Assembly (NCBI GenBank): GCA_964367475.1
Contig: CAYIXQ010000001.1
Span: 1-50,312, forward strand
Source of the DNA: an uncultured Candidatus Saccharibacteria bacterium
Lineage (GTDB): Bacteria > Patescibacteriota > Minisyncoccia > 2-02-FULL-40-12 > IGHO2-01-FULL-4-A
DNA: 50,312 nucleotides
Reading direction: 5' to 3'
Below are positions 1 through 47,124 of the stretch, one piece after another. Position 1 is the stretch's first letter; each line of letters opens with the position of its first letter. The position numbers and the translations under genes are program-made. The notes beneath the pieces are model-generated. The model was not told the origin of the DNA. It saw nothing but the letters and a program-made list of their open reading frames with translations, and searched no databases.

Positions 1-110
1 GACCCAGCGAAGCTGGGGCGCCAAAGAATTGGAATCGCTGTTGTGGCTTGAGCCACGATAAGCCCTAATAGCCTTGGGCTTCGTGGCTCAAGCGCGTAAG
101 TCTTAAATAT
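1..110 (-). repeat. Window-truncated inverted copy of the long structured repeat element (same family as 46262..46563; core shared with 28841..28952 and 29528..29639)
   Basis: The reverse complement of 1..110 aligns without gaps to 46262..46370. The last 56 nt are identical, and about 7 mismatches fall in or next to the hairpin at 47..92 (cttgagccacg...cgtggctcaag). The terminal motif gtaagtctta (96..105) matches the gtaagtccta terminus of the full copy. Confidence 0.85.
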
Positions 111-3500: not shown

Positions 3501-4258
3501 GCGGCTATGGTTTTTATTGGGATCCGGGAACAAATTCTTGCCGTAGCTCGACCTCAACTAGTTACACGCCTTATCCATCTGGCAGTGTAACCTATTCTCC
3601 GGGCCCAAGTTCTTGTCCGACCGGTTCACATAGTATGGGTAGTTACTGTATGTCGGACAGCGATGGTTCAAAATGCGGTCCTATTAGTAGTTCAAGCGTT
3701 TCTAGTTTTGGTTCCTGCTCCACATATCAAGGAGGAACTACCACTTATACACCGGCGCCTTCCTGCCCATCCGGTCAATGGTGGGATTCAGCGACCAATG
3801 CTTGTAGGAGTACGACTGCTACCACCTATTCCCCACCGCCTTCCTGTCCTTCCGGTCAATGGTGGGACTATGGCACAAATTCATGCCGCAGCAGCACATC
3901 AACCTCAACTTATACACCACCACCAGCCTGTCCGGATGGTCAATACTGGGATTCGGGTGTAAGCGCTTGCAGGGTAAATCCAACACCATATCCAACCACG
4001 GCCTACACTCCGCCTCCCACGCAATATGTCCCGCCACCGACAAATGAAGCTACGCCACCACCATCTCCGCCACCAACTTCCTACAATCGCCACCAACACT
4101 ATGTAGCCCAATATATCAGCACCATCGCTCTGGCTAATACGATTATGGACTGCACAGCGGCCGGTGATCGCTGGAATGCAAAGGATGGAATCTGTCGTGA
4201 TGGCGACGCCTCATTCTTTGCTAACATCATCAGATTCATCGCCAATTTCTTAAAGTAA
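518..4258 (+). CDS. Giant secreted/cell-surface Cys-, Pro-, Ser/Thr-rich repeat protein
   Basis: One uninterrupted ORF runs 494..4258. The ATG at 518 gives MKISRVVFLAGTVLVAAFLVAGFVSAAEED (signal peptide or N-terminal anchor). It contains a P/G/Q-rich linker (PGFQPPGQSGFQPPGQIPGFTQPGPGYSPPPGQ). There are 9 copies of a 14-residue module C-x4-[AYW]-[FW]-D-x5-C (for example CPSGQWWDGAANRC) and 3 copies of SCPxxxHxMGxYCMxxxDxSxC. Two DGxDNDxDGAID acidic motifs resemble MopE/thrombospondin-type-3 sites, and the spacers are S/T/P-rich. Confidence 0.85.
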   Translation: MKISRVVFLAGTVLVAAFLVAGFVSAAEEDISAALHDLSSALGQDITNKEQAVIACDAEKNFETCAEIGKKHDLYQPEEIAQVNTVLDEIKGEVATKLQTCQSIECLVGVANELAQKVNAKNPTVATNLDLTPKIVEKKQAIVAAAKEAGISYEQCRNMDPDTAPVDLLRACARLAKDSRVRDFVPEQSRQAADFADSSTDLKEALQKGEVQCGDNTLQGCGNFCLNPSAETRAQGIPPVCNQIATRFFGTDGTKELKRAYKQVEDAGIFYRKKADNLVFTTLDGRVLTDPSAIGNYMENEGRKGNVEAVDKGMDFLIGQGFVKPEEKEYALKFVRKVREKGGEVNFDTCTRDPKSCSDFIPDEQRGQFEAFDQIHDIMRQEIGFDPERCRDANFETGEQCLRGSERAIAKVKSLGLERNNPQVRSLISDIESKVNEGKRYVDSKDQIDRDISSQGGPGDCRSSSDCLAYCSDANHGPECLSFGAKQGVFRGEEVIQKFQQFNQNVQAPRTATYDPARGFEGFYSSFPGGQGPYPGFQPPGQSGFQPPGQIPGFTQPGPGYSPPPGQSSIPYYPDFRRGGDVIGAPVGPSPECFAAIQSGDYARARTACYVPSVTIYPTFTPIGSPVEGCQPPSYFDPGIRVCRTPYTTYSVPPGDQGQYCPPPSAWDPATRSCRPYPTPYTSGSPGLCPSGQWWDGAANRCTSSSSCGYGFYWDPGTQSCRGSGTASSCPSFAHDMGGYCMLNADPSRCSAYGRANSEGNYTTVECNSSPPGGGSWEGSLPGQCSDGIDNDYDGAIDSADTSCTTPPPGPTYSPGPGGSSCSQSLINLLGNGCHWMSNDSSGRAVYCDGPMSKSAKEGDTAATVGCLSGGPYQPTYTPGPGGTFACSDGLDNDGDGAIDYPADSGCYGTTDNDEIIPPGVPPGGSCPAGAHNMGSYCMSDADTSKCGSFGSTSVSSFGSCSQYQGTTSYTPAPACPSGQWWDGAANRCTSSGSCGYGFYWDPGTNSCRSSTSTSYTPYPSGSVTYSPGPSSCPTGSHSMGSYCMSDSDGSKCGPISSSSVSSFGSCSTYQGGTTTYTPAPSCPSGQWWDSATNACRSTTATTYSPPPSCPSGQWWDYGTNSCRSSTSTSTYTPPPACPDGQYWDSGVSACRVNPTPYPTTAYTPPPTQYVPPPTNEATPPPSPPPTSYNRHQHYVAQYISTIALANTIMDCTAAGDRWNAKDGICRDGDASFFANIIRFIANFLK
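2582..3531 (+). repeat. Near-identical 89-nt intragenic direct repeats (2582..2670 and 3443..3531)
   Basis: tgtccttccggtcagtggtgggatggtgcggctaaccgctgtacttcatccRgttcctgcggctatggtttttattgggatccgggaac occurs twice with one mismatch. Both copies encode CPSGQWWDGAANRCTSS[SG]SCGYGFYWDPGT. Confidence 0.9.
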
Positions 4259-22482: not shown

Positions 22483-24873
22483 ATGAAAACCTGTGTTATA
22501 ATCCCAACCTATAACGAAAAAGATAATGTGGTGAAACTGGCGCACTCGATTTTTGAAACGAATCTGCAAACGGCGGTGTTGGTGGTGGATGACAACTCAC
22601 CCGACGGTACAGCTAGCGTCGTTACTGCCTCCGTGGAAAATTATCCCCAGCTTGATCTCCTTCTGCGTTCCGACAATCGCGGATTTGGCCGATCTTATAT
22701 CGATGGATTTAAAAAAATATTAGCCAGAGACAGCTATGAACAAACGGTAATGATGGATGCGGACTTTTCCCATGACCCGGCTGTGATCCCGGCTATGGCG
22801 GCAAGACTGACTGAATATGATTTTGTGGTAGGCTCCCGCTATGTCCGTGGCGGTGATATCAAAAATTGGAACTGGAAACGGCGTCTGCTTAGTCGTTTCG
22901 CTAATTGCTATGCGAAAACGATTTTAGGCATACCCATTAGTGATATGACTACTGGTTTCATGTGTATCAAAACCAGTGTTTTAAAAAATATTGATTTGGA
23001 TGCCATTAAATCTGACGGCTATGCTTTTTTGGTGGAACTCAAGTATCGACTGATCAAGGCGGGCTATAAATTTTTTGAGGAACCGATTATATATAATGAA
23101 CGCCGCGAGGGGCAGTCTAAAATGTCGAGCAAAGTCATTTGGGAATCAATCTGGCTTCCATGGAGATTAAGATTTTCAAGAAAATATTTAAAAAATAAAA
23201 TAAAGAAACATTGGCTGGCTATAGTTTTTGCCATGATTATGGGTTGGATGATGGTCTGGCCTTTTTTAACTTTTCGAGCGGAACTGGGAGATAGGTATCA
23301 AGGGATTGATCGCCAAGTTGCCAACGACGAACTGTTTTATCTTGCCCGGATCAAAGATGTCATGGATGAACATCCCACGCTCGGTAACGCCTACCTGTGG
23401 GAACATAAAATGGGACTGCCGCAACAGTTATTTCTGGCAGAATTTTTACTGGCCCAGCGCCTTAAATATTTAAATATCAACATCCAAACCGGCCATTTAA
23501 TTTATAATTTTATTTTGCCGGCAATTTCTTTCATGCTGGGCTATCTCATTCTCTATTGGATTACGGCCTCGCGGTTATGGGCGATTATGTTTTCGGTTTT
23601 GTTATTTTTTGGAATTTTCCTGTTTGAATTTACCCGACCAATTAGCCCACAGTTTAACTTTATATTCTGGCTGACTCAATTTTTATTCCTCTGGATTTTG
23701 TTCACAAAAGGGACGAGTAGAAAGACTGTTTTTTTAAATGTCCTGAACCTTGGGCTGCTTTTCTACATTTATCCCTATTACTGGGCTTACTACCTGATTC
23801 TGCTCGGGATATTAATTGTTTACTTCTTTTTCAAAAATTTGGATTACTGCTCGGCCTTGCTGAAAATTGTAATTGGTGGGCTAATGCTTAGTTCCGGTTA
23901 TCTGTATTTCACTTTCAAAGCGTCACAGTTGCAATTTTACGAGGATTCACTAACGCGGCTCCAAATGATCTATACTCATTTTCCATCTGGCATTAACATA
24001 CTTAAATGGGCCGTGCCAACGCTTTTACTGTTTTTTACTCTGTACCGGCTAAAGCTATTAAATTATTCCAAAACCTCTGTTTTCCTCACTGCCGCCATTT
24101 TTTCGGTAATAGTGGCAGTAAATCAGCACATTATTACCGGGCGCAATTTTGAATTCTCCTCCCATTATTACATGGTTGGAGTGTTTGTTTCGGTATTTGC
24201 TTTGGCCTATCTCTGGGCGCAAACTAGAAAGCAGGAATACAAGCTAAAAACCTTTGATTCCCTTTGGCTGGGAACGCTTATTATCCTTTTAAGTATGGCC
24301 GGTATTATCAAGTATGCCGAGATGGCTTTTAGTTATAGCAGGGAAATGGTCACTGCTCAGGAATTTGCGCCAATATTTAGTTGGCTGAATGAAAACACGT
24401 CTAGGGACTCGGTGATAATGGCCAACGAAAGTATTTCTCAACTAGCAGCGGTTTACACTCATAACAATGTGTTTTTTGCCCGGAATGCTAATCTTTTTTT
24501 GCTGCCCGACGTGGAAGTAATTGACCGCTTTATTTTAAATAATATCGATAAAAAATTTGACCGTGATTTTGTGATCACCAATGTCAGATCTATTTATGGG
24601 GTAAGGTACATTGATGAATACGGTCATACAGTCCAGTCAAACAAAGTCAGAAAATTATTAAGGTTACCAACTAAAGCTGAAATTTATTTGCCGGAAATTG
24701 CGATCGATGTCTTTCTGACAAGGGCTGAATATATGAAAAATAATCTTGCTAAGGAAATCGCTAAGTACAGATTGGATTATATTATTCTTGAAAATGGCCA
24801 ACCTGCTTTTGCTAAAAATATTTTCCAGAAAACCCTCTTTTCCGCGGGTAACTTTATTATCCTGGGAAGATAA
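22483..24873 (+). CDS. Fusion protein: Dpm1/Ppm1-type polyprenol-phosphate mannose synthase (GT2) plus a ~560-aa polytopic membrane domain
   Basis: Residues 1..~235 carry CVIIPTYNEKDN, VVDDNSPDGT, DADFSHDP and GSRYVRGG. The remainder is a run of hydrophobic helices (for example LAIVFAMIMGWMMVWPFL and IYNFILPAISFMLGYLILYWI) plus a soluble tail. Confidence 0.75.
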   Translation: MKTCVIIPTYNEKDNVVKLAHSIFETNLQTAVLVVDDNSPDGTASVVTASVENYPQLDLLLRSDNRGFGRSYIDGFKKILARDSYEQTVMMDADFSHDPAVIPAMAARLTEYDFVVGSRYVRGGDIKNWNWKRRLLSRFANCYAKTILGIPISDMTTGFMCIKTSVLKNIDLDAIKSDGYAFLVELKYRLIKAGYKFFEEPIIYNERREGQSKMSSKVIWESIWLPWRLRFSRKYLKNKIKKHWLAIVFAMIMGWMMVWPFLTFRAELGDRYQGIDRQVANDELFYLARIKDVMDEHPTLGNAYLWEHKMGLPQQLFLAEFLLAQRLKYLNINIQTGHLIYNFILPAISFMLGYLILYWITASRLWAIMFSVLLFFGIFLFEFTRPISPQFNFIFWLTQFLFLWILFTKGTSRKTVFLNVLNLGLLFYIYPYYWAYYLILLGILIVYFFFKNLDYCSALLKIVIGGLMLSSGYLYFTFKASQLQFYEDSLTRLQMIYTHFPSGINILKWAVPTLLLFFTLYRLKLLNYSKTSVFLTAAIFSVIVAVNQHIITGRNFEFSSHYYMVGVFVSVFALAYLWAQTRKQEYKLKTFDSLWLGTLIILLSMAGIIKYAEMAFSYSREMVTAQEFAPIFSWLNENTSRDSVIMANESISQLAAVYTHNNVFFARNANLFLLPDVEVIDRFILNNIDKKFDRDFVITNVRSIYGVRYIDEYGHTVQSNKVRKLLRLPTKAEIYLPEIAIDVFLTRAEYMKNNLAKEIAKYRLDYIILENGQPAFAKNIFQKTLFSAGNFIILGR

Positions 24874-24904
24874 CTAGCTTAAAAAGTTATCAACATAACT
24901 CTCT

Positions 24905-24933
24905 TTGCAAGGTTTGGGCAGGTGAACTAAAAT
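24905..24933 (+). promoter_or_regulatory. Strong sigma70-like promoter for the secreted-protein operon
   Basis: TTGCAA (24905..24910), a 17-nt spacer, then TAAAAT (24928..24933). The ~64-nt leader contains a C(UUCG)G hairpin (24966..24977) and a GAGGG Shine-Dalgarno. Confidence 0.55.
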
Positions 24934-24997
24934 GTATGTATAACTTGGTAATCGTCGCCGTCCAATCCCTTCGGGGAGGTTGAGGGCGTAACTAATA

Positions 24998-26176
24998 ATG
25001 AAGAAAATTTTTACGCGTATTATTGTCGGGTCGATGATAATTTCGACAGCTTTTGTGCTTTCCGGATGGGCGCAAGCCGATTCCACCATCGGTACGAATA
25101 TTTCAACAACGGGCACCCTGACGGTTAAAAGCAACAGCACCTCGGCAGTAAGTTTTCAAAATGCCGCCGGCACTTCAACCCTGGTGCTATTTGATTCTGG
25201 AGCCTTAAGGTTGGGAGTTAATTATGGCTCATCGTTAGATGCTTCGTTTGAAGTGGGTGGGACGGCATCGGCCAACTATTTAGTTACTCGTAACGCAGTC
25301 CAAATTGGCAATAGTGGGGCCACCGTGGCTTATTCTAGATTTGGCACCAGTGCCGCCGGTCATTCTAATTATATAACCGCGGCAGATGATATTCTTATCT
25401 CTGGCGATCTAGAAATTGATGGTTCGGTCTCATTTGCCGGACCGGCCTCTATTTCCGGGATTCTTTTCTTAGCCAATGGCCAAGTCAGACCCCGCACCGA
25501 TGCGACGACTGCCTTCCGATTCCAAAACGCAGTGGGTGATACCTCCGCTCTAACAATTGATACTTCAAATTCCAGGGTAGGAATTGCCGCCGGAACAATT
25601 GACGTTTTCTTTGAAGTTGGCGGCACAGCTTCAGCTAATTACTTGGTTACCGAGAATTCTATTCAAATCGGTAATAGTGGGGCCACGGTGGCTTATTCTA
25701 GATTTGGCACCAATGCTACCGGCCATTCAAATTATATTACTGCTTCTAACGACTTGTTGATTACTGGCGACCTGGAAGTTGATGCTTCCGTGGCTTTTGC
25801 CGGACCGGCCTCTATTTCTGGGATTCTTTTCTTAGCCAATGGTCAAGTTAGGCCCGAAGCCAATTCGACGACCGCCTTTAGATTTCAAAACGCAGCTGGC
25901 GGCACCACGGTTTTGACTGTTGATTCAACCAATACCAGAGTTGGTGTCGGTGCGGTCAATACTCTGGATGTGGCTTTTGAGGTGGCTGGAGTGGCCTCGG
26001 CGTCCGGTGGATTATTTGTGGGTGCCGCGAATAATGCGACTACTAGTATCACTTTTGATAGCATTCATGCTTCGAGGGGCGCTTGCTTAGAAATTAAGGA
26101 TCGGGACGGGGCTGGCTTTACTTATTTGAGGGTTAACGATGGGACTGGTACTTTTAGCACTACGAGCTGTAAATAG
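24998..26176 (+). CDS. Secreted repeat protein (hypothetical surface/fibre-like)
   Basis: It has a signal peptide (MKKIFTRIIVGSMIISTAFVLSGWAQA). Two full ~121-aa tandem repeats plus partial ones follow (FEVGGTASANYLVT.N..QIGNSGATVAYSRFGT...GHSNYITA..D.LI.GDLE.D.SV.FAGPASISGILFLANGQVRP). Confidence 0.8.
   Translation: MKKIFTRIIVGSMIISTAFVLSGWAQADSTIGTNISTTGTLTVKSNSTSAVSFQNAAGTSTLVLFDSGALRLGVNYGSSLDASFEVGGTASANYLVTRNAVQIGNSGATVAYSRFGTSAAGHSNYITAADDILISGDLEIDGSVSFAGPASISGILFLANGQVRPRTDATTAFRFQNAVGDTSALTIDTSNSRVGIAAGTIDVFFEVGGTASANYLVTENSIQIGNSGATVAYSRFGTNATGHSNYITASNDLLITGDLEVDASVAFAGPASISGILFLANGQVRPEANSTTAFRFQNAAGGTTVLTVDSTNTRVGVGAVNTLDVAFEVAGVASASGGLFVGAANNATTSITFDSIHASRGACLEIKDRDGAGFTYLRVNDGTGTFSTTSCK
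25247..25975 (+). repeat. In-frame tandem repeat, unit 363-366 nt, two full units
   Basis: The units start at 25247 and 25610, and the next partial unit starts at 25976. There are long identical stretches such as ggccaccgtggcttattctagatttggcacc and gccggaccggcctctatttc.gggattcttttcttagccaatgg. Confidence 0.85.
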
Positions 26177-26202
26177 TTGTCAAAGAATGTTAATCTGGGC
26201 TG

Positions 26203-26667
26203 ATGGCTATCAAAAAGGCATTTATCAAAACCTTATTTTCAGTCCAGCGGTTGGTAATTATATTGGCAGTCATTGGTGTTGTCTTTGTTCTTCTGTGGGT
26301 TTTCTTGCTTAGTTATCAGGTATATTTACTCTGGAAACCTGGCGCCGAAATGGCATTAGTCGCGGCTGATACTTACCAAGCGGTTTTTTTGACAAATGAT
26401 CAGATATACTTCGGGCACTTACTTAATATAAAGGATGACTTCATGTTTTTGGATGACGTCTATTACGTAAAGATTGAAGAGCAAATCACCGATACGGGTA
26501 CTAGAACTACAAGAGGCAGACTGATAAGATTAGGAGAAACCGAACCACATGGACCGAGGAATCAGATGATAATTAATAGAGAACAGGTGCTGTTTTGGGA
26601 AAACTTAAGCTTTGAGTCGCAAATTTATCAGTCAATTCAGAGCTATAATAATTTGCAAAAAAAATAA
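26203..26667 (+). CDS. Small N-terminally anchored membrane protein (hypothetical)
   Basis: A 154-aa ORF with one TM helix (LVIILAVIGVVFVLLWVFLLSY). It is co-oriented and tightly spaced within the operon. Confidence 0.6.
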   Translation: MAIKKAFIKTLFSVQRLVIILAVIGVVFVLLWVFLLSYQVYLLWKPGAEMALVAADTYQAVFLTNDQIYFGHLLNIKDDFMFLDDVYYVKIEEQITDTGTRTTRGRLIRLGETEPHGPRNQMIINREQVLFWENLSFESQIYQSIQSYNNLQKK

Positions 26668-26672
26668 AAATA

Positions 26673-27869
26673 ATGAAAATCGTTCCGCCTCCTTCTTCCA
26701 AGTTTATTCCTCATTTGATTAAAATCCTGCTTGCTTCTCTCATTTTTGTGTTGGCTGGCTTACTGGGTATTCAGCCGGCTTTGGCCGTCGGCGCCGCCTA
26801 TTTTCAGGAGGAGACAACTATTGAATTAACTCTGGCCGGAACAACCACAAATTTTCAAGTTCTTGCCGGTTCAGATGGAGATTCGGTTGAGGTTACATCT
26901 GATAGAATAACCTTGACAATTTCTGGCGGTCAGAAATTCACATTGAGATCTTCTGATCGAAAAAAACTAACCAACGATGGCAGTTACAGTTACTCGTGTC
27001 CATCTGCCTATTCAGAACTAGTGATTGATTTGGCATCCGGTGCTGCCCAAAAGACAGTAATTATCTCCCCTGAATCAGCCAACTGTAGTACATTGGTTGG
27101 CGGCGGCGGCGGTGTCACTGGCGGCGGCGGAGGCGGCGGTGGTGGAGCATCTGCCCAGACGACAACACCAACACCGGCGGCATCAACTCCTTCTTCTGGC
27201 GGATCGGTTGATTTGGCCAAATATAATTTGAAAGACGGGGACGTGGTCAGTGCTTCTGGCACTGATGATCCAGATGTATATATTGTTAATCAGTTTGGTT
27301 TCAAGAGGTTATTCTTAAATCCAATCATCTTCAGCTTCTATGGCCATCTGGGAGGATTCGGTAAGGTCAAGACCGTTGCTTCGATTACGCGTGATGTTTT
27401 TGGAACTTCCAGCTATTTTAGAAATTGCGAATCAAATGATCCTAAAGTATATGCGGTTGAAGTAACTGGTGAGGACAAAGGTACCCTGCGCTGGATCAAC
27501 ACGTCTGGTGACCAAGCCGTTAAGGACGATCCGGACTTCTTTAAAAAAGTATTCTGTATTAACAACAAAGAATTTAGCTGGTACCCGAAAGGAACAGCTT
27601 ATACGTCTGTAAAACAAGTGCCGGCCTACGTCAGAAGCGCAACGATAGTGGCTGGCGTATCAACCGAAGCTAGTCAAAGTCTGACAATTGGTGGTGGGAT
27701 CAAATGGTTAAATGTTCGCAATAAAACTTCAATCAAGGGCAATATTGTTGCTAAAGCTTACCCAGGAGAAGAGTATACCTATACCAAAAAATCTAATGGT
27801 TGGTACTTGATTCAGAAAGATGGTACTGATCTAGGGTGGGTGATTGGTACATACGTAAAGGTAAAATAA
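26673..27869 (+). CDS. Secreted protein with poly-Gly linker and C-terminal SH3b-like domain
   Basis: It has an N-terminal anchor/signal (LIKILLASLIFVLAGLLGIQPALA) and a linker (GGGGGVTGGGGGGGGGASAQTTTPTPAASTPSSGG). The C-terminus (KWLNVRNKTSIKGNIVAKAYPGEEYTYTKKSNGWYLIQKDGTDLGWVIGTYVKV) follows the bacterial SH3 pattern. Confidence 0.7.
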   Translation: MKIVPPPSSKFIPHLIKILLASLIFVLAGLLGIQPALAVGAAYFQEETTIELTLAGTTTNFQVLAGSDGDSVEVTSDRITLTISGGQKFTLRSSDRKKLTNDGSYSYSCPSAYSELVIDLASGAAQKTVIISPESANCSTLVGGGGGVTGGGGGGGGGASAQTTTPTPAASTPSSGGSVDLAKYNLKDGDVVSASGTDDPDVYIVNQFGFKRLFLNPIIFSFYGHLGGFGKVKTVASITRDVFGTSSYFRNCESNDPKVYAVEVTGEDKGTLRWINTSGDQAVKDDPDFFKKVFCINNKEFSWYPKGTAYTSVKQVPAYVRSATIVAGVSTEASQSLTIGGGIKWLNVRNKTSIKGNIVAKAYPGEEYTYTKKSNGWYLIQKDGTDLGWVIGTYVKVK

Positions 27870-27888
27870 GCCTCGATTCTTATAAAAA

Positions 27889-27918
27889 CTAAAATCCCGT
27901 TCGGCGGGATTTTAGTTT
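27889..27918 (+). terminator. Intrinsic terminator of the secreted-protein operon
   Basis: ctaaaatcccg (27889..27899) pairs perfectly with cgggattttag (27905..27915) across a 5-nt loop, followed by ttt. Confidence 0.7.
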
Positions 27919-27952
27919 GATGCCAGGCGGCTTTTATTATATGGTAGGTTTA

Positions 27953-28819
27953 ATGACTGAACCCTATTTGTCAGTGGTGGTGCCGGTACATAATGAAGAA
28001 AAGCATATTGAAGCTTTTTTGGATCAATTACGTTCTGCCCTGCTCAATTGTCCCTTTGCTTTTGAAGTAATTGTGGTTAACGATGGGTCAACCGATAAAA
28101 CCCATGAACTTATTTTGAAACTTGAGCAGATTAAACTGATCAACCACGACACAAACCGTGGTTATGGCAGCGCTATTAAGAGTGGCATTCTAGCCGCGTC
28201 GGCTGATAAGATTTTAATCACTGATGCTGATGGCACGTATCCTACAGAAAAAATTGCCGATCTTTTGAAATACAGTCAAGACTATGACATGGTGGTCGGC
28301 GCCAGAATTGTAAATAAAACCCACCACTCCAAAGTAAAACGTCTGGCTAAATGGCCCATTCACCTGTTGGCTAATTATCTGGTTGGTTTCAAAATTCCCG
28401 ATTTGAATTCCGGATTAAGAATTTTCCGCAAAGATTTAGCGCTAAAATATTTTCGGCTTTTACCCAATGGTTTTTCTTTAACCACCAATATTACTCTAGC
28501 CTTTTTGGCAGATGGTTATAGAGTAAAATACATCCCCATTGATTATCATAAACGAGTGGGTAAATCCAAAGTTCATCCAATCCGCGACGCGGTAAATTAT
28601 TTGGTGCTGGTAATGAGAATGATCCTTTTTTACAATCCTCTGAAGTTTTTCGTACCCGTGGCCGGAGTATTTTTTGCTCTGTCAGCCTGGTCTTTTCTAT
28701 ATGATATTATTAAACTCGACGATCTTACTGAAAAAACTCTAATCCTTTTTGTGGCGTTTGTGCAGATAACCATTCTCGGATTTCTAGCAGATTTGATAAA
28801 TAAGAGGGGGATGGATTAG
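27953..28819 (+). CDS. GT2 polyprenyl-phosphate glycosyltransferase (GtrB/ArnC/DPG-synthase-like) with C-terminal TM helices
   Basis: LSVVVPVHNEE, VVNDGSTD and TDADGTYP, plus two C-terminal hydrophobic helices (FFVPVAGVFFALSAWSFLY and LILFVAFVQITILGFLADLI). In-frame starts also exist at 27920 and 27941. Confidence 0.8.
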   Translation: MTEPYLSVVVPVHNEEKHIEAFLDQLRSALLNCPFAFEVIVVNDGSTDKTHELILKLEQIKLINHDTNRGYGSAIKSGILAASADKILITDADGTYPTEKIADLLKYSQDYDMVVGARIVNKTHHSKVKRLAKWPIHLLANYLVGFKIPDLNSGLRIFRKDLALKYFRLLPNGFSLTTNITLAFLADGYRVKYIPIDYHKRVGKSKVHPIRDAVNYLVLVMRMILFYNPLKFFVPVAGVFFALSAWSFLYDIIKLDDLTEKTLILFVAFVQITILGFLADLINKRGMD

Positions 28820-28840
28820 ATTCTGCCCGTGGCTACGCAC

Positions 28841-28952
28841 CACTATCATTTTGCCACGACAGCGATTCCAATCCTTTGGCGCCCCTTTATGCAGAATGGG
28901 TCCCCCGCCAAGGATTGAAACCTTCGACGGGAATCGTGGTAAAATGATAGTG
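28841..28952 (+). repeat. Short (112-nt) structured repeat element, copy A; carries an outward promoter-like motif
   Basis: It is 109/112 identical to 29528..29639. The terminal stem is cactatcattttgccacga/tcgtggtaaaatgatagtg and the inner hairpin is ccaatcctttggcg...cgccaaggattg. TTGAAA (28915..28920), a 19-nt spacer and TGgTAAAAT (28937..28945) face the rmlC-like gene. Confidence 0.85.
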
Positions 28953-29012
28953 TGACTAAAAATATGTTTATATACCATTCATAATTTACCAGCTATGATT
29001 GACGGAGTTAAA

Positions 29013-29450
29013 ATGAAAAAAATTATATCTTTTTATGATGACCGTGGTTTTTTTGCGGAAGTTTGCAAGTTTGGCGAGGAGACTTTTCACGAGATAAAAC
29101 AAACCAGTTATAGCGAGACATTGCCGGGCGTCATCAAAGCGTTCCATTGGCACAAACGACAATGGGATGTCTGGTTTTTGGTCAAAGGTTCGGCCCAGGT
29201 TGTTTTATACGATCTCCGAGATAATTCTCCAACCAAGGGTCAAACCGATATTCTCTATCCCAACGCCCGCAATATGCTTCTTATTGCCATCCCGCCAGGC
29301 GTGGCTCACGGCTATCGGGTCCTGGGAACACAGCCGATTGGCATGCTTTATCACACTACTGAACCTTACGATCCTTCTAACCCCGATGAGTATCGAATTT
29401 CTTTTGATGATCAGACTATTGGTTTCGACTGGAGAACAAAAAATAAATAA
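29013..29450 (+). CDS. rmlC: dTDP-4-dehydrorhamnose 3,5-epimerase-like cupin (short RmlC family)
   Basis: DDRGFF, IKAFHWHKRQWDVWFLVKG, YDLRDNSPTKGQ, IPPGVAHGY and YDPSNPDEYRISFDD follow the RmlC motif order. GGAG lies 7 nt upstream of the ATG at 29013; the ORF extends to 28995. Confidence 0.75.
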   Translation: MKKIISFYDDRGFFAEVCKFGEETFHEIKQTSYSETLPGVIKAFHWHKRQWDVWFLVKGSAQVVLYDLRDNSPTKGQTDILYPNARNMLLIAIPPGVAHGYRVLGTQPIGMLYHTTEPYDPSNPDEYRISFDDQTIGFDWRTKNK

Positions 29451-29527
29451 AAAAGGTGGCCGTATAACCACCGTTGGTGCCATCGCAAGTTACCCGTTAA
29501 CATTAGCGGGTATGTAGGATATTAAAT

Positions 29528-29639
29528 CACTATCATTTTACCACGACAGCGATTCCAATCCTTTGGCGCCCCTTTATGCAGAATGGGTCCCCCGCCAAGG
29601 ATTGAAACCTTCGACGAGAATCGTGGGAAAATGATAGTG
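29528..29639 (+). repeat. Short (112-nt) structured repeat element, copy B; terminator-like context
   Basis: It is in the same orientation as copy A, with 3 substitutions. It is followed directly by T7-CATG-T7 (29641..29658), so the 19-bp terminal stem plus U-run has intrinsic-terminator geometry on the + strand. Confidence 0.85.
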
Positions 29640-29722
29640 ATTTTTTTCATGTTTTTTTCCGCTCCCTTTCCCTAGCCGACCGGATCGGCGATCGGATTGC
29701 TCCTTTGTTTAGTACTTTAATA

Positions 29723-29751
29723 TTGCCAATGACCGAAAAAACTGGTAATAT
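29723..29751 (+). promoter_or_regulatory. Sigma70-like promoter with extended -10; predicts a leaderless or near-leaderless mRNA
   Basis: TTGCCA (29723..29728), a 17-nt spacer ending in TGg, then TAATAT (29746..29751). The ATG at 29761 is only 9 nt downstream and has no Shine-Dalgarno. Confidence 0.5.
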
Positions 29752-29760
29752 TTAGTCATC

Positions 29761-30531
29761 ATGGCTAGACAGGCCAACGTTGCGATTTGCGCTGCTTATG
29801 AAATGGGCGTAAAGTTAATCTCAAAAGTTTTAGCCGAATCTTATCCGGTAAAGTTTGTGGCTACTTGTATTCGTGACACTACCGGCGACGAAAAAAAAAT
29901 CGCCAACTTGTGCGCCCAAAACGGCGTTCAGTGTTATCGTCAGATCAGTGCCAATGATCCCGAGTTTATCAAAAAATTAAAAGAAAACGATATTGACCTT
30001 GTTTTCATGCTCTGGTGGCCAGAGATTGTCAAAAAGGATGCCATTCAGGCAGCCAAAATCGGGTGGGTGAATTTACATACTAGCCTTTTACCCTATAATC
30101 GCGGTATGCATCCATATTATTGGGCGATTGTAGATGGCACGCCTTTTGGGGCAACGCTCCATCTAATCAATGAAGGTATTGATTCGGGCCCAATCTTATT
30201 TCAAAAAGAATTAACTATAGATATCACTGATACCGGAGATTCATTGTATAAAAAACTAATACAGACTTGTTTAGACCTTTTTTCCGAATCTTACCCCAAA
30301 ATATTGCGTTTTGATTTTAAACCTAAACCGCAAGCCAATGACCGCGCCACCTTTCACTGGGCCAAGGATATAAATCCACATTCAACCATAGACTTGGAAA
30401 AAACTTACAAAGCGAGGGATTTAATAAATATAATAAGAGCCAGAACTTTTTGGGGTCGGCCATCAGGTTTTTTCTTCCATGAGGGGAAAAAATACTGGGT
30501 GCGACTCCAAATTGAAGAGGCGAGAGAATAA
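29761..30531 (+). CDS. Formyltransferase (Fmt/ArnA N-domain family; probable sugar N-formyltransferase)
   Basis: VNLHTSLLPYNRGMHPYYWAIVDGTPFGATLHLINEGIDSGPILFQ matches the formyl_trans_N catalytic core (N, H, D). Confidence 0.8.
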   Translation: MARQANVAICAAYEMGVKLISKVLAESYPVKFVATCIRDTTGDEKKIANLCAQNGVQCYRQISANDPEFIKKLKENDIDLVFMLWWPEIVKKDAIQAAKIGWVNLHTSLLPYNRGMHPYYWAIVDGTPFGATLHLINEGIDSGPILFQKELTIDITDTGDSLYKKLIQTCLDLFSESYPKILRFDFKPKPQANDRATFHWAKDINPHSTIDLEKTYKARDLINIIRARTFWGRPSGFFFHEGKKYWVRLQIEEARE

Positions 30532-31679
30532 TGTCTAACTCATCAGATAAAATTTTCATGGCTGGTCCCTGGATCACCGAGGTTGAAATTAAAGCCGTCG
30601 AGGACGCTATGCGTCATTGGTATGAGGGTTGCTATGATTATGTAGAAAAATTTGAAAAAGAATTTGCCGCCTTTCATGATCGGAAATACGCTTTAATGAC
30701 ACCCAATTGCACCACGGCTATTCACCTGCTTTTAACCGCCCTGGGTATCAAGTCAGGGGATGAGGTGATTGTTCCGGATTGCACCTGGATTGCCACCATT
30801 TCTTCAGCAGTGCTTCTGGGGGCGACGCCGGTTTTTACTGACATTGACCCAGTGAATTGGTGTCTCGATCCAGCATCGGTCAGAAAAAATATTACTCCTA
30901 AAACCAAAGCCATTATTGTGGTTGATTTATATGGCAACATGCCGCATATGGATGAACTTTTAGCCATCTCAAAAGAACACGGCATACCCTTGGTAGAGGA
31001 TTCGGCTGAAGCCCTCGGTTCCAAGTATAAAGGAATCAGAGCGGGTAAATTTGGGGTAGGATCAGTTTTTAGCTTTCATCGAACTAAAACCTTAACTACT
31101 GGCGAAGGAGGAATGCTGCTTTTAGATGATGACGATCTATTTAAATTTTGCCGGGTGTGGCGTGACCATGGCCGAGGACCTGATACGCCGATGTATCAAA
31201 ATGATGCCGTGACTTATAAATTTATGCCCTTTAACGTTCAGGCGGCCATTGGCTATGCTCAATTTACCAGATTTGATGAATTGGTTGATAAGAAGCGGGA
31301 GCTGTTAAAAAAATACAAAGAAAGACTAGCCGATATTCCAGACCTTTATTTCAACGATGAGCCTGAATATGTTTACAACAGCGTTTGGGCAACCACGGTG
31401 GTTTTTGGCAAAAGTCATGGTGTGACCAAACAGCAAGTGATTGAACGAGCGGCTAAAATGGATATACCCGTTCGTCCATTCTTTTTTCCACTCTCATCTT
31501 TAAAGCCGTTTGCCGATAAGTGGCAAGCAGTTTGCTCACAAAGAAATCCGGTCGCTTATAATGTTTCTGATCGCGGCGTCAACCTTTCCTGTGCCATGAA
31601 TTTAACCGATACCCAGATTGATAAAATCGCCAATGCAGTTAGAGCTGCGATCGGATACTCTTCAAAGGCAGTTTGGTAA
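30531..31679 (+). CDS. DegT/DnrJ/EryC1/StrS-family PLP-dependent sugar aminotransferase
   Basis: ALMTPNCTTAIHLLL, LVEDSAEALGS and FSFHRTKTLTTGEGGML (PLP lysine). Confidence 0.85.
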   Translation: MSNSSDKIFMAGPWITEVEIKAVEDAMRHWYEGCYDYVEKFEKEFAAFHDRKYALMTPNCTTAIHLLLTALGIKSGDEVIVPDCTWIATISSAVLLGATPVFTDIDPVNWCLDPASVRKNITPKTKAIIVVDLYGNMPHMDELLAISKEHGIPLVEDSAEALGSKYKGIRAGKFGVGSVFSFHRTKTLTTGEGGMLLLDDDDLFKFCRVWRDHGRGPDTPMYQNDAVTYKFMPFNVQAAIGYAQFTRFDELVDKKRELLKKYKERLADIPDLYFNDEPEYVYNSVWATTVVFGKSHGVTKQQVIERAAKMDIPVRPFFFPLSSLKPFADKWQAVCSQRNPVAYNVSDRGVNLSCAMNLTDTQIDKIANAVRAAIGYSSKAVW

Positions 31680-31689
31680 TACACAGTAG

Positions 31690-32796
31690 ATGAGAGTTTT
31701 GTTTTTGACTCAATTTTCAGAAATCGGCGGCACTAGCCGGATCCACGTTTTACAGTTTCTTCCTCTTTTAAGAAAACGCGGCATAGTCTGCGACAGTCGT
31801 CATTTTTATTCTGATAGATTTTATCGGATTATGTTTGATTTGGTTAAAATAGGTCGTTTCGACAAGTCAATTAATTTTGTTTTCTATGTTTCATTGGGCA
31901 TGCTCAAAAAACTTTGGTATATCTGGCTGGCCAGAAATTATGACGCGGTTTTTCTGCAAAGAGAAGTTTTTCCCCTCCTCTGGAGATGGCTTTTGAAAAT
32001 CAGCAACCCAAGAATTATTTACGAAATTGAGGATGCCGTTTTCGAAATTAATCCTATTTACCGAAAACGAGGTCTAATTTATTTTACGGCTGTTAATTAC
32101 CAAGCTAAATTAATTTCAAAAATGATTCAACAAGCTGTATGGGTGATTGCCGAGAACGAGCATTTGGCGGAATATTCCAGAAAATTTAATCAAAACGTAA
32201 CTATCATTTCCTGCCCCATTGATACAAATTATTTTGTACCCGGCTTATCTAAATCAGGCGATGTCGTAACTATTGGCTGGGTGGGCAGTCCTTTGACTAC
32301 CTATTTATTGAAAGAACTTAATCCGGTTTTTACTCGTCTGGGCAAAAGGTATGGCGACAAGATTAGGCTAATGGTGATTGGCGCAGCTTCTGATTATGTT
32401 GTCAAAGGTGTTAGTTTGATTAAAAAGAATTGGAGTTTAGCCACTCAAATTGCCGATCTTCAACAATTTGACATTGGCCTTATGCCTTTGGACGACACGC
32501 CTTTTAATAAGGGGCGATTGGGGGGAAAAATGATGCAGTATATGAGTCTTGGTCTGCCCGTTGTAGCTTCAAATGTTGGCCTAAATTCAATGGTGGTCAA
32601 AGATGACTTCAATGGTTATTTGGCGGGGGATATTGATGAATGGGTGGCAAAACTTTCGTTACTGATTGAAAATCGGGAGTTAAGAGAACAGCTCGGAAAA
32701 AATGGTAGAATTGAGGTCGTAAAAAAATATGATATTGATAAGCAAGCATATGTCATTTATGAAATTATAAATAAAGTCTGTCACCTGGATTTCTGA
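31690..32796 (+). CDS. Glycosyltransferase, GT-B fold (GT1/GT4-like)
   Basis: VTIGWVGSPLTTYLL and GGKMMQYMSLGLPVVASNVGLNSMVV. Confidence 0.7.
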   Translation: MRVLFLTQFSEIGGTSRIHVLQFLPLLRKRGIVCDSRHFYSDRFYRIMFDLVKIGRFDKSINFVFYVSLGMLKKLWYIWLARNYDAVFLQREVFPLLWRWLLKISNPRIIYEIEDAVFEINPIYRKRGLIYFTAVNYQAKLISKMIQQAVWVIAENEHLAEYSRKFNQNVTIISCPIDTNYFVPGLSKSGDVVTIGWVGSPLTTYLLKELNPVFTRLGKRYGDKIRLMVIGAASDYVVKGVSLIKKNWSLATQIADLQQFDIGLMPLDDTPFNKGRLGGKMMQYMSLGLPVVASNVGLNSMVVKDDFNGYLAGDIDEWVAKLSLLIENRELREQLGKNGRIEVVKKYDIDKQAYVIYEIINKVCHLDF

Positions 32797-33701
32797 TGAA
32801 TAATTTTGAAACAATCAATTGCGACCTTTGCGGAAGTAATGATTCAGAAATAATTTATAAAAACCTCGTTGACAATTACCTATTTAAACCGGGTTTATTT
32901 AACTATGTTCGCTGTCAGAATTGCGGCCAAATTTATTTAAATCCAAGACCGTTGAAAACTGCCATACCTGGATATTACAAAGGCGAATATATTCCCTACG
33001 GGGCGAGGAATTTTTTTATAATGTTCTTAAAAAAAATTCTTTGGCTGCCAGATAAGTTATTCATAGACAGTACTTTAACTAAGGGTGGGAAAATATTGGA
33101 AATCGGATGCGCGCGGGGAGATTTTTTAGCCTATTTAGGTAAACGTTATCAGACTTACGGATTGGAAATGGATCAAGCCAGCGTTGACTGGGCGGTAAAT
33201 AAGCACGGGCTTGATGTGTCTAAGGATATCCTTGAAGATCATGATTTTGGCGGCTTAAAATTTGATTTCGTGATTATGTTTTTTGTGCTTGAGCATATGT
33301 TATCTCCCAAGCGAGCTTTGGGAAAACTTTACTCGATTATGAATCCGGGAGGGGTCGCCTTAATTAGCCTACCAAACTTTAATTCCTGGGAAAGACGATT
33401 TTTTGGACGGTATTGGGCTGGTTTTGATGTGCCTCGCCACCTATATATTTTCGGTGAGCCGCAATTTAAACGTTTGGCGGAAGAAGCGGGCTTCGAAATT
33501 CTTAAAGTTAAATATAGCTTAGTCCCGAATGACTGGCTAGCCAGCATAAAGCGATTACTTACCGAAAAAGGTTTTCTACGGCTGGCAAAAATTTTCAGTA
33601 TATATAATCTTTTTCTGGCTGCCTTGTTTTTACCGATAAGTTTTATAGCCAAATTTTCCGGCCAGACTACTCGCTTTTCATTTGTTATAAGGCGCATTTG
33701 A
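32796..33701 (+). CDS. Class I SAM methyltransferase with N-terminal zinc ribbon
   Basis: CDLCGSNDSE...VRCQNCGQIYLNPRP, ILEIGCARGDF and FDFVIMFFVLEHM. It is a paralogue of 36900..37802. Confidence 0.75.
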   Translation: MNNFETINCDLCGSNDSEIIYKNLVDNYLFKPGLFNYVRCQNCGQIYLNPRPLKTAIPGYYKGEYIPYGARNFFIMFLKKILWLPDKLFIDSTLTKGGKILEIGCARGDFLAYLGKRYQTYGLEMDQASVDWAVNKHGLDVSKDILEDHDFGGLKFDFVIMFFVLEHMLSPKRALGKLYSIMNPGGVALISLPNFNSWERRFFGRYWAGFDVPRHLYIFGEPQFKRLAEEAGFEILKVKYSLVPNDWLASIKRLLTEKGFLRLAKIFSIYNLFLAALFLPISFIAKFSGQTTRFSFVIRRI

Positions 33702-46247: not shown

Positions 46248-46261
46248 AACCTTATGAATAT

Positions 46262-46563
46262 ATGATAGGACTTACACACTTGAGCCACGAAGCCCAATAG
46301 TATTAGGGCTTACCATGGCTCAAGCCACAACAGCGATTCCAATTCTTTGGCGCCCCAGCTTCGCTGGGTCCCCCGCCAAGAATTGGAACCTTCGACGAGC
46401 AGGGTTTGGCCAATTTCTTTGTTAAAATCTACGTTTGAGACTCGCCGTACCTGCTAGTACGTCTCGTCTCAAGCCTCGATTTTGCCTGCTGGGCGAAGGT
46501 TCACGCCGAGGAACTTCGGCGGGAATCGCCCTCGAAATTGGCCAAACGCGTAAGTCCTAATAT
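46262..46563 (+). repeat. Long (~300-nt) structured repeat element, full copy; candidate ncRNA or hairpin-type non-autonomous mobile element
   Basis: No ORF; about 52% G+C by hand count. It has perfect terminal inverted repeats taggacttac (46266..46275) and gtaagtccta (46550..46559). Further complementarities are 46404..46417/46534..46547 (14 bp), 46333..46340/46522..46529 (8 bp) and 46389..46403/46485..46499. Local hairpins lie at 46279..46324, 46339..46386 and 46433..46474. The ~75-nt core is shared with the 112-nt copies. Confidence 0.8.
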
Positions 46564-46566
46564 GAA

Positions 46567-47097
46567 GTGACTCTCTACGGGCTTCCGCCCGTAGCATCAT
46601 TCCAGAGCAAGCGTAGCTTGGCCACTGTCTTCTTTGCCTTGCATGGTAATGTATTTTTTGATGATGGCTTCGTTAATACCGACGGTTGAGACGAAATAGC
46701 CGATCGACCAAATTGTCTCAGAATCAAAGTATCCATGCACGAGAAACGGGAATTTCTTCTTCAGCATACGCGCGGTATTGGCCTTGATGATGCTGACGGC
46801 CTGAGCGATGGAAAGCTTAGGTGCAATGGAACAGAGGATATGAATATGGTCTTCGTCGGTGTTGACTTCGATGATGTATATCTCGGGATGCTGACGTTGA
46901 AGACTTTTCACCAAGAAGCAGAGGTAACGGCCAATACCGCGCTTTAAGAGCTTCCGACGGAATTTGGTCGTGAACACGATGTGATAGCGGGTGTGGTAGA
47001 CCGCATGCGTCTGGCGCTGATAGATAATCACCCTTTTACTCTAGCAGAAGACAGTGGCACCTATCCATCTGCGGGCTGCCGCCCGCAGTTTTAACCG
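46567..47097 (-). mobile_element. Minimal IS200-type (IS200/IS605 family, tnpA-only) insertion sequence
   Basis: tnpA is flanked by two similar, same-orientation subterminal hairpins: ctacgggcTTCCgcccgtag (46575..46594) and ctgcgggcTGCCgcccgcag (47069..47088). On the element's top (minus) strand a TTAC lies just 5' of the left end (47098..47101). The exact ends are estimated. Confidence 0.75.
46597..47031 (-). CDS. tnpA: IS200/IS605-family Y1 (HUH) transposase TnpA
   Basis: YHTRYHIVFTTKFRRKLL, the HUH motif DHIHILCSI and the catalytic Tyr region WSIGYFVSTVG. It is 144 aa with a GTG start. Confidence 0.9.
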   Translation of the reverse strand: MIIYQRQTHAVYHTRYHIVFTTKFRRKLLKRGIGRYLCFLVKSLQRQHPEIYIIEVNTDEDHIHILCSIAPKLSIAQAVSIIKANTARMLKKKFPFLVHGYFDSETIWSIGYFVSTVGINEAIIKKYITMQGKEDSGQATLALE

Positions 47098-47100
47098 GTA

Positions 47101-47124
47101 ATAAAAAACCCCGTTGGACGGGGT
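47101..47124 (-). terminator. Intrinsic terminator of the radical SAM gene
   Basis: The minus strand reads accccgTCCAAcggggTTTTTTAT immediately after the stop at 47132..47134. Confidence 0.7.

Follow-up and report, generated by a model that had tools for sequence, protein, structure and literature searches.

Structured repeats in a groundwater Saccharibacteria population are probably a nested mosaic of small palindromic mobile DNA elements

Introduction

Saccharibacteria/Patescibacteria genomes are small, about 1 Mb, and we found no description of REP- or MITE-like repeats in these bacteria in the open-access literature. In a contig of an uncultured Candidatus Saccharibacteria bacterium (CAYIXQ010000001.1; positions 1 to 50,312, the whole stretch of DNA analyzed here, are called the window), a strongly folding element recurs between genes in two size classes. 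An earlier note on this DNA offered two readings of it, a novel non-coding RNA and a hairpin-type mobile element, and we wanted to determine which of these the family represents.

Results

Copies of the element in the window

Four copies had been described, with a ~75-nt core common to all of them. Both points were confirmed by pattern matches to the two core halves, for which shuffles gave 0 matches:

15-36 (-), 28864, 29551 and 46335 (+): core half GATTCCAATYCTTTGGCGCCCC, pattern match
28898, 29585 and 46366: core half GGGTCCCCCGCCAAGRATTGRAACCTTCGACG, pattern match

A repeat search of the window gave 97% identity between 28841-28952 and 29528-29639, and showed that 1-105 is the reverse complement of 46266-46370 at 92% identity. 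All copies are intergenic, as had been reported, and mostly occupy the whole spacer between co-directional genes. No ORF of more than 43 aa overlaps the element, which agrees with the earlier view that it holds none, and its raised G+C was also borne out (0.50–0.59 within 46300-46600 vs 0.31–0.47 upstream). The swap of the apical tip between the size classes is genuine, and other copies add two tip variants, ATTCCTGCGGAAT and ATTCCTTCGGAAT. A neighboring ORF that had been overlooked, 33 nt to the right of the long form, encodes an IS200 transposase (see below).

The long form and its MITE-like host element

The long form, L (302 nt), reads as a MITE-like element, X, that holds two further modules, B and D, in the following order:

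46260..46264: left target-site duplication ATATG of L, the same pentamer lying directly outside both terminal inverted repeats (TIRs)
46266..46279 (+): left TIR of X, TAGGACTTACACAC (TAGGACTTACGCGC in other copies), pairing with 46548-46559
46280..46323 (+): hairpin A of X, TTGAGCCACGAAGCCC...GGGCTTACCATGGCTCAA, present in B-less X copies and paired in MFE folds
46324..46330 (+): junction linker GCCACAA of X, unpaired in the X fold, with B inserted directly 3'
46331..46401 (+): B, long variant (71 nt), CAGCGATTCC - bulged hairpin - GAACCTTCGACGAGCA, the 'core' common to the short form
46402..46486 (+): arm C of X, 5' strand and distal hairpin, GGGTTTGGCCAATTT ... GATTTTGCC
46487..46531 (-): D, a 45-nt mini B-family member, GGGCGATTCC-CGCCGAAGTTCCTCGGCG-TGAACCTTCGCCCAGCA on the minus strand
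46532..46547 (+): arm C of X, 3' strand, TCGAAATTGGCCAAAC
46548..46559 (+): right TIR of X, GCGTAAGTCCTA
46560..46564: right target-site duplication ATATG of L
1..105 (-): second long-form copy (TIR, hairpin A and start of B), cut by the window edge

X itself is ~182 nt and is made up of the TIRs, hairpin A and arm C. X-type ends were also found at L025 4350, at L025 8433 and on the window copy at 105 (-), and X/L copies number four in ~108 kb of the population's contigs. The TIRs (TAGGACTTACGC and GCGTAAGTCCTA) pair over 12–13 bp in X and over a perfect 10 bp in the window copy. Two long-range pairs had been reported for L and both were exact, the 10-bp pair 46266-46275/46550-59 (TAGGACTTAC/GTAAGTCCTA) and the 14-bp pair 46404-17/46534-47 (GTTTGGCCAATTTC/GAAATTGGCCAAAC), the latter being the stem of arm C, which pairs with 46534-46547.

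Target-site duplications had been named beforehand as the sign of an ordinary MITE as opposed to a non-coding RNA, and the long form has them. The flanking direct repeats are ATATG/ATATG for L in the window, ATAAA/ATAAA for the copy at L025 4349 and ATATT/ATGTT for that at L025 8433, the duplication thus being imperfect (4/5) in one of three complete X/L copies. For the window, flanking 5-mers would match perfectly by chance with a probability of ~0.0013 per site, a figure to be read against an AT-rich target that raises chance matches. The second long-form copy at 1..105 (-) has the 5' flank ATATT and is 100% identical to X over 62 nt. X/L shows several of the features by which MITEs are recognized: it is small, non-coding, multi-copy and dispersed, with TIRs and with target duplications directly outside them.

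X occurs twice without B or D, and along the 87 nt next to the B site both copies match L at 100%, so the difference in B occupancy is recent. In the B-less copies the uninterrupted sequence at the linker reads GCCACAA/GGGTTTGG (a slash after the flank marks the junction here and below), and arm C (46402..46486) is 100% identical to L025 4414-4500 and 8497-8583. No transposase with X-matching ends was found in ~200 kb of these genomes, nor was any TIR match found beside a transposase gene. Contigs with the neighboring 246-aa gene all stop inside L, as is expected of a repeat, and an empty site for L was therefore not recovered. No promoter-like site was found next to L.

A solo palindrome, TAGGACTTACACGTAAGTCCCA, at L024 1590-1611 is made of the two X TIRs joined directly, the interior being absent, and has no evident target duplication. 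Either it is X reduced to a minimum by deletion, or it is an 'empty host' for X.

The short form and its host palindrome

The short form, S (112 nt), can be read in the same manner, as a palindrome, H, with a 74-nt version of module B exactly in its apex loop. The two complete window copies are:

28841..28952 (+): S copy, with H arms at 28841-28859 and 28934-28952 and B at 28860-28933
29528..29639 (+): S copy, with H arms and B (29547-29620) at the apex

H is a dispersed, intergenic, REP-like 38-nt perfect palindrome with the arms CACTATCATTTTRCCACGA/TCGTGGYAAAATGATAGTG; its junction with B, CCACGA/, is the equivalent of the linker junction in X. In 108 kb we counted four empty H copies (L024 9673-9710; L023 4224, 4802, and 6602) and seven filled with B. 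These seven S copies lie at different loci and are 94–98% identical, with three tip variants, and the H copies examined in this population were all intergenic. H is thus a short (20–40 bp) intergenic palindrome in many copies, as is required of a REP. The tetranucleotides GTAG and CGTC are absent from H and from any fixed position in its flanks, and no target duplication or flank consensus was found for H/S among the copies compared. The only Y1 transposase seen, in the part of the genome examined, scores as an IS200 equivalog with its own hairpins and is not flanked by H.

B of the short form also carries GGATTGAAAC, a common CRISPR-repeat 3' handle, at 28912-28921 and 29599-29608, where it follows a G+C-rich hairpin; in that place the long form reads GAATTGGAAC. 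A CRISPR repeat was considered and the match was taken as chance, as Rfam CRISPR-DR scored only E ~1 and the long form differs.

Modules B and D

The long variant of B is 83–87% identical to B of the S copies and is missing from the X copies. D is likewise missing from both X copies; it occupies an internal loop in arm C, and a 3-nt repeat, CCT, leaves its exact limits ambiguous. The reverse complement of D can be aligned with both ends of B (GGGCGATTCC ... GAACCTTCGCCCAGCA vs CAGCGATTCC ... GAACCTTCGACGAGCA), and D folds with B's basal stem and 3-nt CCT bulge. From these alignments and folds, D reads as a mini B-type hairpin in inverted orientation.

Such a relationship accounts for several features of the long form. 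The cgattc/gaatcg pair is kept across a ~130-nt 'insertion', and GAACCTTCG has a partner in the long form only, because D is an inverted relative of B. Pairs cross the 14-bp stem of arm C, giving an apparent pseudoknot, because B and D as inverted relatives can pair with each other. The pseudoknot and the hexamer pair had been counted toward conserved structure; with D a reverse-oriented mini B, neither they nor the interrupted pair below speak for a conserved RNA tertiary fold. An interrupted pair reported at 46389-403/46485-99 was correctly located, but its size is 9+6 bp (GAACCTTCG..AGCAGG / CCTGCT..CGAAGGTTC) and not 6+5 bp.

Across the B family the base, GCGATTCC / GGAACCTTCG plus the CCT bulge, is invariant and the apex varies. 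The basal motif GCGATTCC...GAACCTTCG with its bulge is exact in four otherwise different variants, including one from a sister genome (see below), which would also fit a functional RNA or a protein-binding motif. B-type insertion junctions number three, one in H and two in X, with the 5' flanks CCACGA/, CCACAA/ and TTTCGA/. None shows a target duplication, and the position is ambiguous by at most 1 nt (B) or 3 nt (D). In the folds of the hosts, each of the three sites (the H apex loop GATC, the X junction linker and the arm C internal loop) is unpaired; selection sparing host stems could alone explain insertion into loops among n = 3 events. By analogy, B insertion resembles the recognition and insertion of single-strand (HUH-type) elements. 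B has no similarity to the resident IS200 ends, and no enzyme is linked to it.

We regard it as distinctly unlikely that the B-type hairpin is an undescribed miniature insertion unit, or that its base is a cellular protein- or RNA-recognition motif in Saccharibacteria. Such a unit would be 37–74 nt long, with the invariant base GCGATTCC...GGAACCTTCG, the 3-nt CCT bulge, a variable apex and asymmetric tails. Its entry points would be single-stranded loops of other hairpin repeats, on the 3' side of C-R-A, with no duplication of the target, and it might travel either by way of an RNA intermediate or as single-stranded DNA handled by an HUH-like enzyme. Were B indeed self-targeting, few known insertion units would be as small.

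Folding, covariation and searches for known RNAs

Compared with shuffles, the long form folded with z = -9.2 (+) and -10.8 (-) and the short forms with z = -5.4 to -7.8, the two strands folding equally well. The T:A to C:G compensatory pair that had been reported is genuine, and it is the sole one among 22 predicted pairs; the other 21/22 are invariant, and the covariation term is +0.39, about 0. The claim that structure is being conserved rested on this one pair, which is possible in any palindromic DNA repeat. Two mismatches on the plus strand become G-U on the minus strand. At G-T wobble positions two cases favor the minus strand and one the plus strand, and relative to the flanking genes B points in the same direction three times and in the opposite direction three times.

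Rfam 15 at the gathering threshold gave 0 matches over the entire window, in agreement with the first impression that the element is no recognized RNA. At E ≤ 10, searches of L, S and X returned noise only (E ≥ 0.16, bits far below cut-offs), including microRNA-like hairpins and CRISPR-DR at E ~1, the latter due to GGATTGAAAC. No tRNA or tmRNA was found. Significant covariation, a consistent strand and a promoter-like site next to L, the generic marks of a novel non-coding RNA, were all lacking. A dedicated or novel non-coding RNA with a pseudoknot is not supported. Of the two readings offered at the outset, the hairpin-type mobile element gains support, and the novel RNA does not, given the modularity of the family, its target duplications and covariation at 1/22 pairs.

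Distribution in other genomes

A search of related metagenomes with the core had been suggested. Scanning with a loosened core pattern yielded further copies on five further contigs, all from the same population, that of Hainich groundwater, well H51, 0.1-μm fraction. The B core pattern gave 0 matches in a genome-contig collection, and two B patterns and the H pattern gave 0 matches in viral contigs. With a looser B pattern there were 71 viral matches, none with the B fold, which were judged to be chance for so short a pattern. Two protein-database searches with repeat translations, run to detect spurious ORFs annotated over further copies, found nothing, nor did exact look-ups of six such ORFs.

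An H-arm scan of GTDB species representatives led to one MAG, uncultured Candidatus Saccharibacteria bacterium ERP119705_co24_158 (CAYILQ01). This sister MAG holds at least 13 H copies in 78 kb (at least 11 loci), some in tandem and all empty, and B, X and D were not found alongside them. It is syntenic with window positions 24434-33677 (~9 kb; L117) at 71–77% DNA identity, and H is 95–100% identical between it (L031-L045) and the window population (window and L022-L026). That H is more alike between the two genomes than their genes points to recent activity, to transfer between populations that co-occur, or to strong constraint. S is missing from both orthologous sister spacers, which measure 38 nt vs 175 nt in the window and 142 nt vs 310 nt, the 38-nt spacer corresponding to the S copy at 28841..28952; the sister spacers are too diverged to place the S insertion boundaries to the base.

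The sister genome also has a mini B-type hairpin, GGCGATTCCAACTTCGTTGGAACCTTCGCC, within a 282-nt multi-hairpin composite. This composite is present in two copies that are 97% identical (L038 6544-6825 and L045 3303-3583) and consists of 22-bp inverted ends, a 45-nt perfect palindrome, the mini B-type hairpin and a 100-nt hairpin arm. Pieces of it also stand alone: L043 5006-5052 is the palindrome, and L038 4461-4565 is the arm together with the right end.

The adjacent IS200

Between L and the terminator of a radical-SAM gene lies an IS200, 5 nt from L's end:

46565..47100 (-): IS200 insertion sequence abutting L, with LE hairpin, tnpA, RE hairpin and 10 nt
within 46565..47100: IS200 LE hairpin CTGCGGGCGGCAGCCCGCAG and RE hairpin CTACGGGCGGAAGCCCGTAG
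46597-47031 (-): IS200 tnpA (Pfam Y1_Tnp 7.9e-27; NCBIfam transpos_IS200 equivalog 2e-31)

Homology to 20 related IS200 copies in other contexts (76–87% DNA identity) stops at 46565/66 and at ~47100-47112, and none of these relatives carries the structured element, so the IS200 is a separate ~540-bp insertion. Within the window and loci L022-L026, its hairpin motif CGGGCNNNNGCCCG was found only inside the IS200 unit. A reading of L as an IS200 accessory, a PATE or an omega-RNA-like element was set aside, as the two share no hairpins and L does not travel with tnpA.

The leader of the IS200, just 3' of the left-end hairpin, has a 12-nt stretch GCCACTGTCTTC (47047-47058, -) whose perfect complement, GAAGACAGTGGC, lies close to the tnpA 3' end (46621-46632, +). 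In the L012-L021 relatives both sides are changed together (GCCGCTATCTTC / GAAGATAGCGGC, synonymous in the CDS), making two compensatory pairs, which suggests a possible long-range pairing under selection, in RNA or in single-stranded DNA. At L002 2275-3348 there is a head-to-tail pair of IS200 elements in which one right end is joined directly to the following left end (...AATCAC/TACCGG...), an arrangement to be expected if the right-end cleavage site is similar to the target.

Discussion

A probable nested mosaic and its alternatives

Our analysis makes it probable that the structured family is a mosaic in which small, non-coding palindromic repeats of mobile DNA lie nested in each other within a repeat-rich CPR genome, and not one conserved RNA gene. 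We infer every mobilization step of H, S, X, L and B from the sequences. X/L would have been moved in trans by a DDE-type transposase making 5-bp staggered cuts, and H/S would have spread as whole units by some enzyme. B-type hairpins would have entered three hosts without target duplication, favoring single-stranded loops 3' of C-R-A in a manner that may resemble single-strand (HUH-type) insertion, and once inserted B would be carried along by its host element. The likely effect would be that of REP/MITE-like hairpins co-transcribed at gene ends, where they would provide transcript-end structure independent of orientation.

It is possible, if not likely, that B and D were never mobile themselves and that only the outer H-type and X-type elements ever transposed, the mosaics having arisen through recombination, replication template-switching between palindromes, or internal deletion from longer ancestors. 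In MITE families the ends are commonly kept while the interiors vary, and fragments or minimal versions do exist here, as the L024 1590-1611 palindrome and the stand-alone pieces of the sister composite show; furthermore the GCCACRA 5' junction of H and X could be microhomology, and no enzyme for B is known. What speaks for insertion is that three junction pairs share a C-R-A/ 5' flank in both orientations, with precise ends (CAGCGATTCC / GGGCGATTCC ... AGCA/) and with 3' junctions that lack microhomology. In addition, empty H is the sole state in the sister genome, so S would be derived by gain and not H by loss.

Two further explanations give the structure a function. The invariance of 21/22 pairs and the missing Rfam match make it very unlikely that B, or possibly the entire long form, is a functional structured RNA, a multi-copy sRNA-like core hairpin with optional domains for which the host palindromes would serve as closing stems or terminators. 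Such an RNA would fit the one true compensatory pair, the very strong folding z-scores, the two plus-strand mismatches that turn G-U on the minus strand, and tips that differ in sequence while all forming hairpins. It would also fit the basal motif GCGAUUCC...GGAACCUUCG with its 3-nt bulge, which is identical in B-short, B-long, D and the sister mini version while the apical parts differ completely. However, X and H share the terminal stems yet occur without any core, the long-range pairs are accounted for by D being an inverted B copy, orientation to the flanking genes is 3:3, no promoter-like sites lie beside L, and in the searches made B is restricted to one groundwater population. That L is a functional part of the adjacent IS200/IS605 element, whether as an extended right end, a guide-RNA-like scaffold or a TnpA-mobilized PATE, is hardly credible. 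L lies only 5 nt from the IS200 right end, and IS200/IS605 elements work through DNA hairpins and, as B seems to, insert with no duplication of the target; yet the 20 related copies end exactly at 46565/66 with no such element, CGGGCNNNNGCCCG is confined to the IS200 unit, X and S copies on other contigs have no nearby tnpA, and there is neither a tnpB or iscB nor an Rfam match to HEARO or another omega-RNA.

Likeness to known elements

Size variants through internal insertions are a feature of ERIC. Like bacterial MITEs in general, X/L elements are small, non-coding, intergenic and multi-copy, with TIRs, short target duplications, a stable fold-back and positions near gene ends. They differ from MITEs in that X has a three-way structure and not a simple fold-back, in that L has a second kind of hairpin module nested in it twice, in opposite orientations, and in that no parent IS with the same ends was found (bacterial MITEs include Correia/NEMIS, ERIC, Nezha and Chunjie; reviewed in PMC3184786 and PMC2229807).

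REP, BIME and REPIN repeats and their RAYT transposases (PMC2817692, PMC3116915, PMC3733652) offer the closest comparison for H, a short perfect palindrome that is intergenic, present in many copies and at times tandem. As with REPs, H is better conserved between genomes (95–100%) than the surrounding genes (71–77%), and the outline of S, two inverted arms with a spacer, is like that of a REPIN within an overall BIME-like mosaic. REPs have a conserved GTAG or CGTC tetranucleotide at one end (PMC3733652), whereas H has no such head and its arms are not palindromes themselves. Unlike in REP/RAYT systems, no RAYT gene flanked by H was seen, the sole Y1 transposase being a standard IS200 with unrelated hairpins.

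B-type hairpins recall IS200/IS605 ends and PATEs in their asymmetric ends and in having a hairpin with an extrahelical bulge. They also share with these 'peel and paste' elements the lack of target duplication, a short 5' flank C-R-A/ and sites in regions expected to be single-stranded. B differs from them in being one hairpin, where IS200/IS605 has a separate left end and right end, and in having no linked enzyme and three insertion events. As in pneumococcal BOX elements and ISPpu9/Ssr9, an IS-associated sRNA module (PMC12288879), the sub-modules are interchangeable and a structured non-coding module lies beside an IS or alone; unlike Ssr9, the module is never carried by relatives of the neighboring IS and is known here from sequence alone. 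The H, S, X, L and B families are new in sequence, and their kinds, the MITE and the REP/BIME-like mosaic, are well known (PMC3184786, PMC2817692, PMC3116915).

Nested palindromic mobile DNA can produce very strong folding scores, a compensatory pair and seeming pseudoknots alike, and scans of CPR genomes for non-coding RNAs need repeat and occupancy controls. Repeat density here is ~15 elements in 108 kb, and together with the conservation of the palindromes it suggests that the repeats form an ecosystem that is active, or was until recently, and at which assemblies also break. The window holds further direct repeats, unrelated to the hairpin family, at 2582-3549 (2582-2688 / 3443-3549, 107 nt at 94%), at 3417-3983 (four 81-nt units) and at 25238-25900 (300 nt at 77%).
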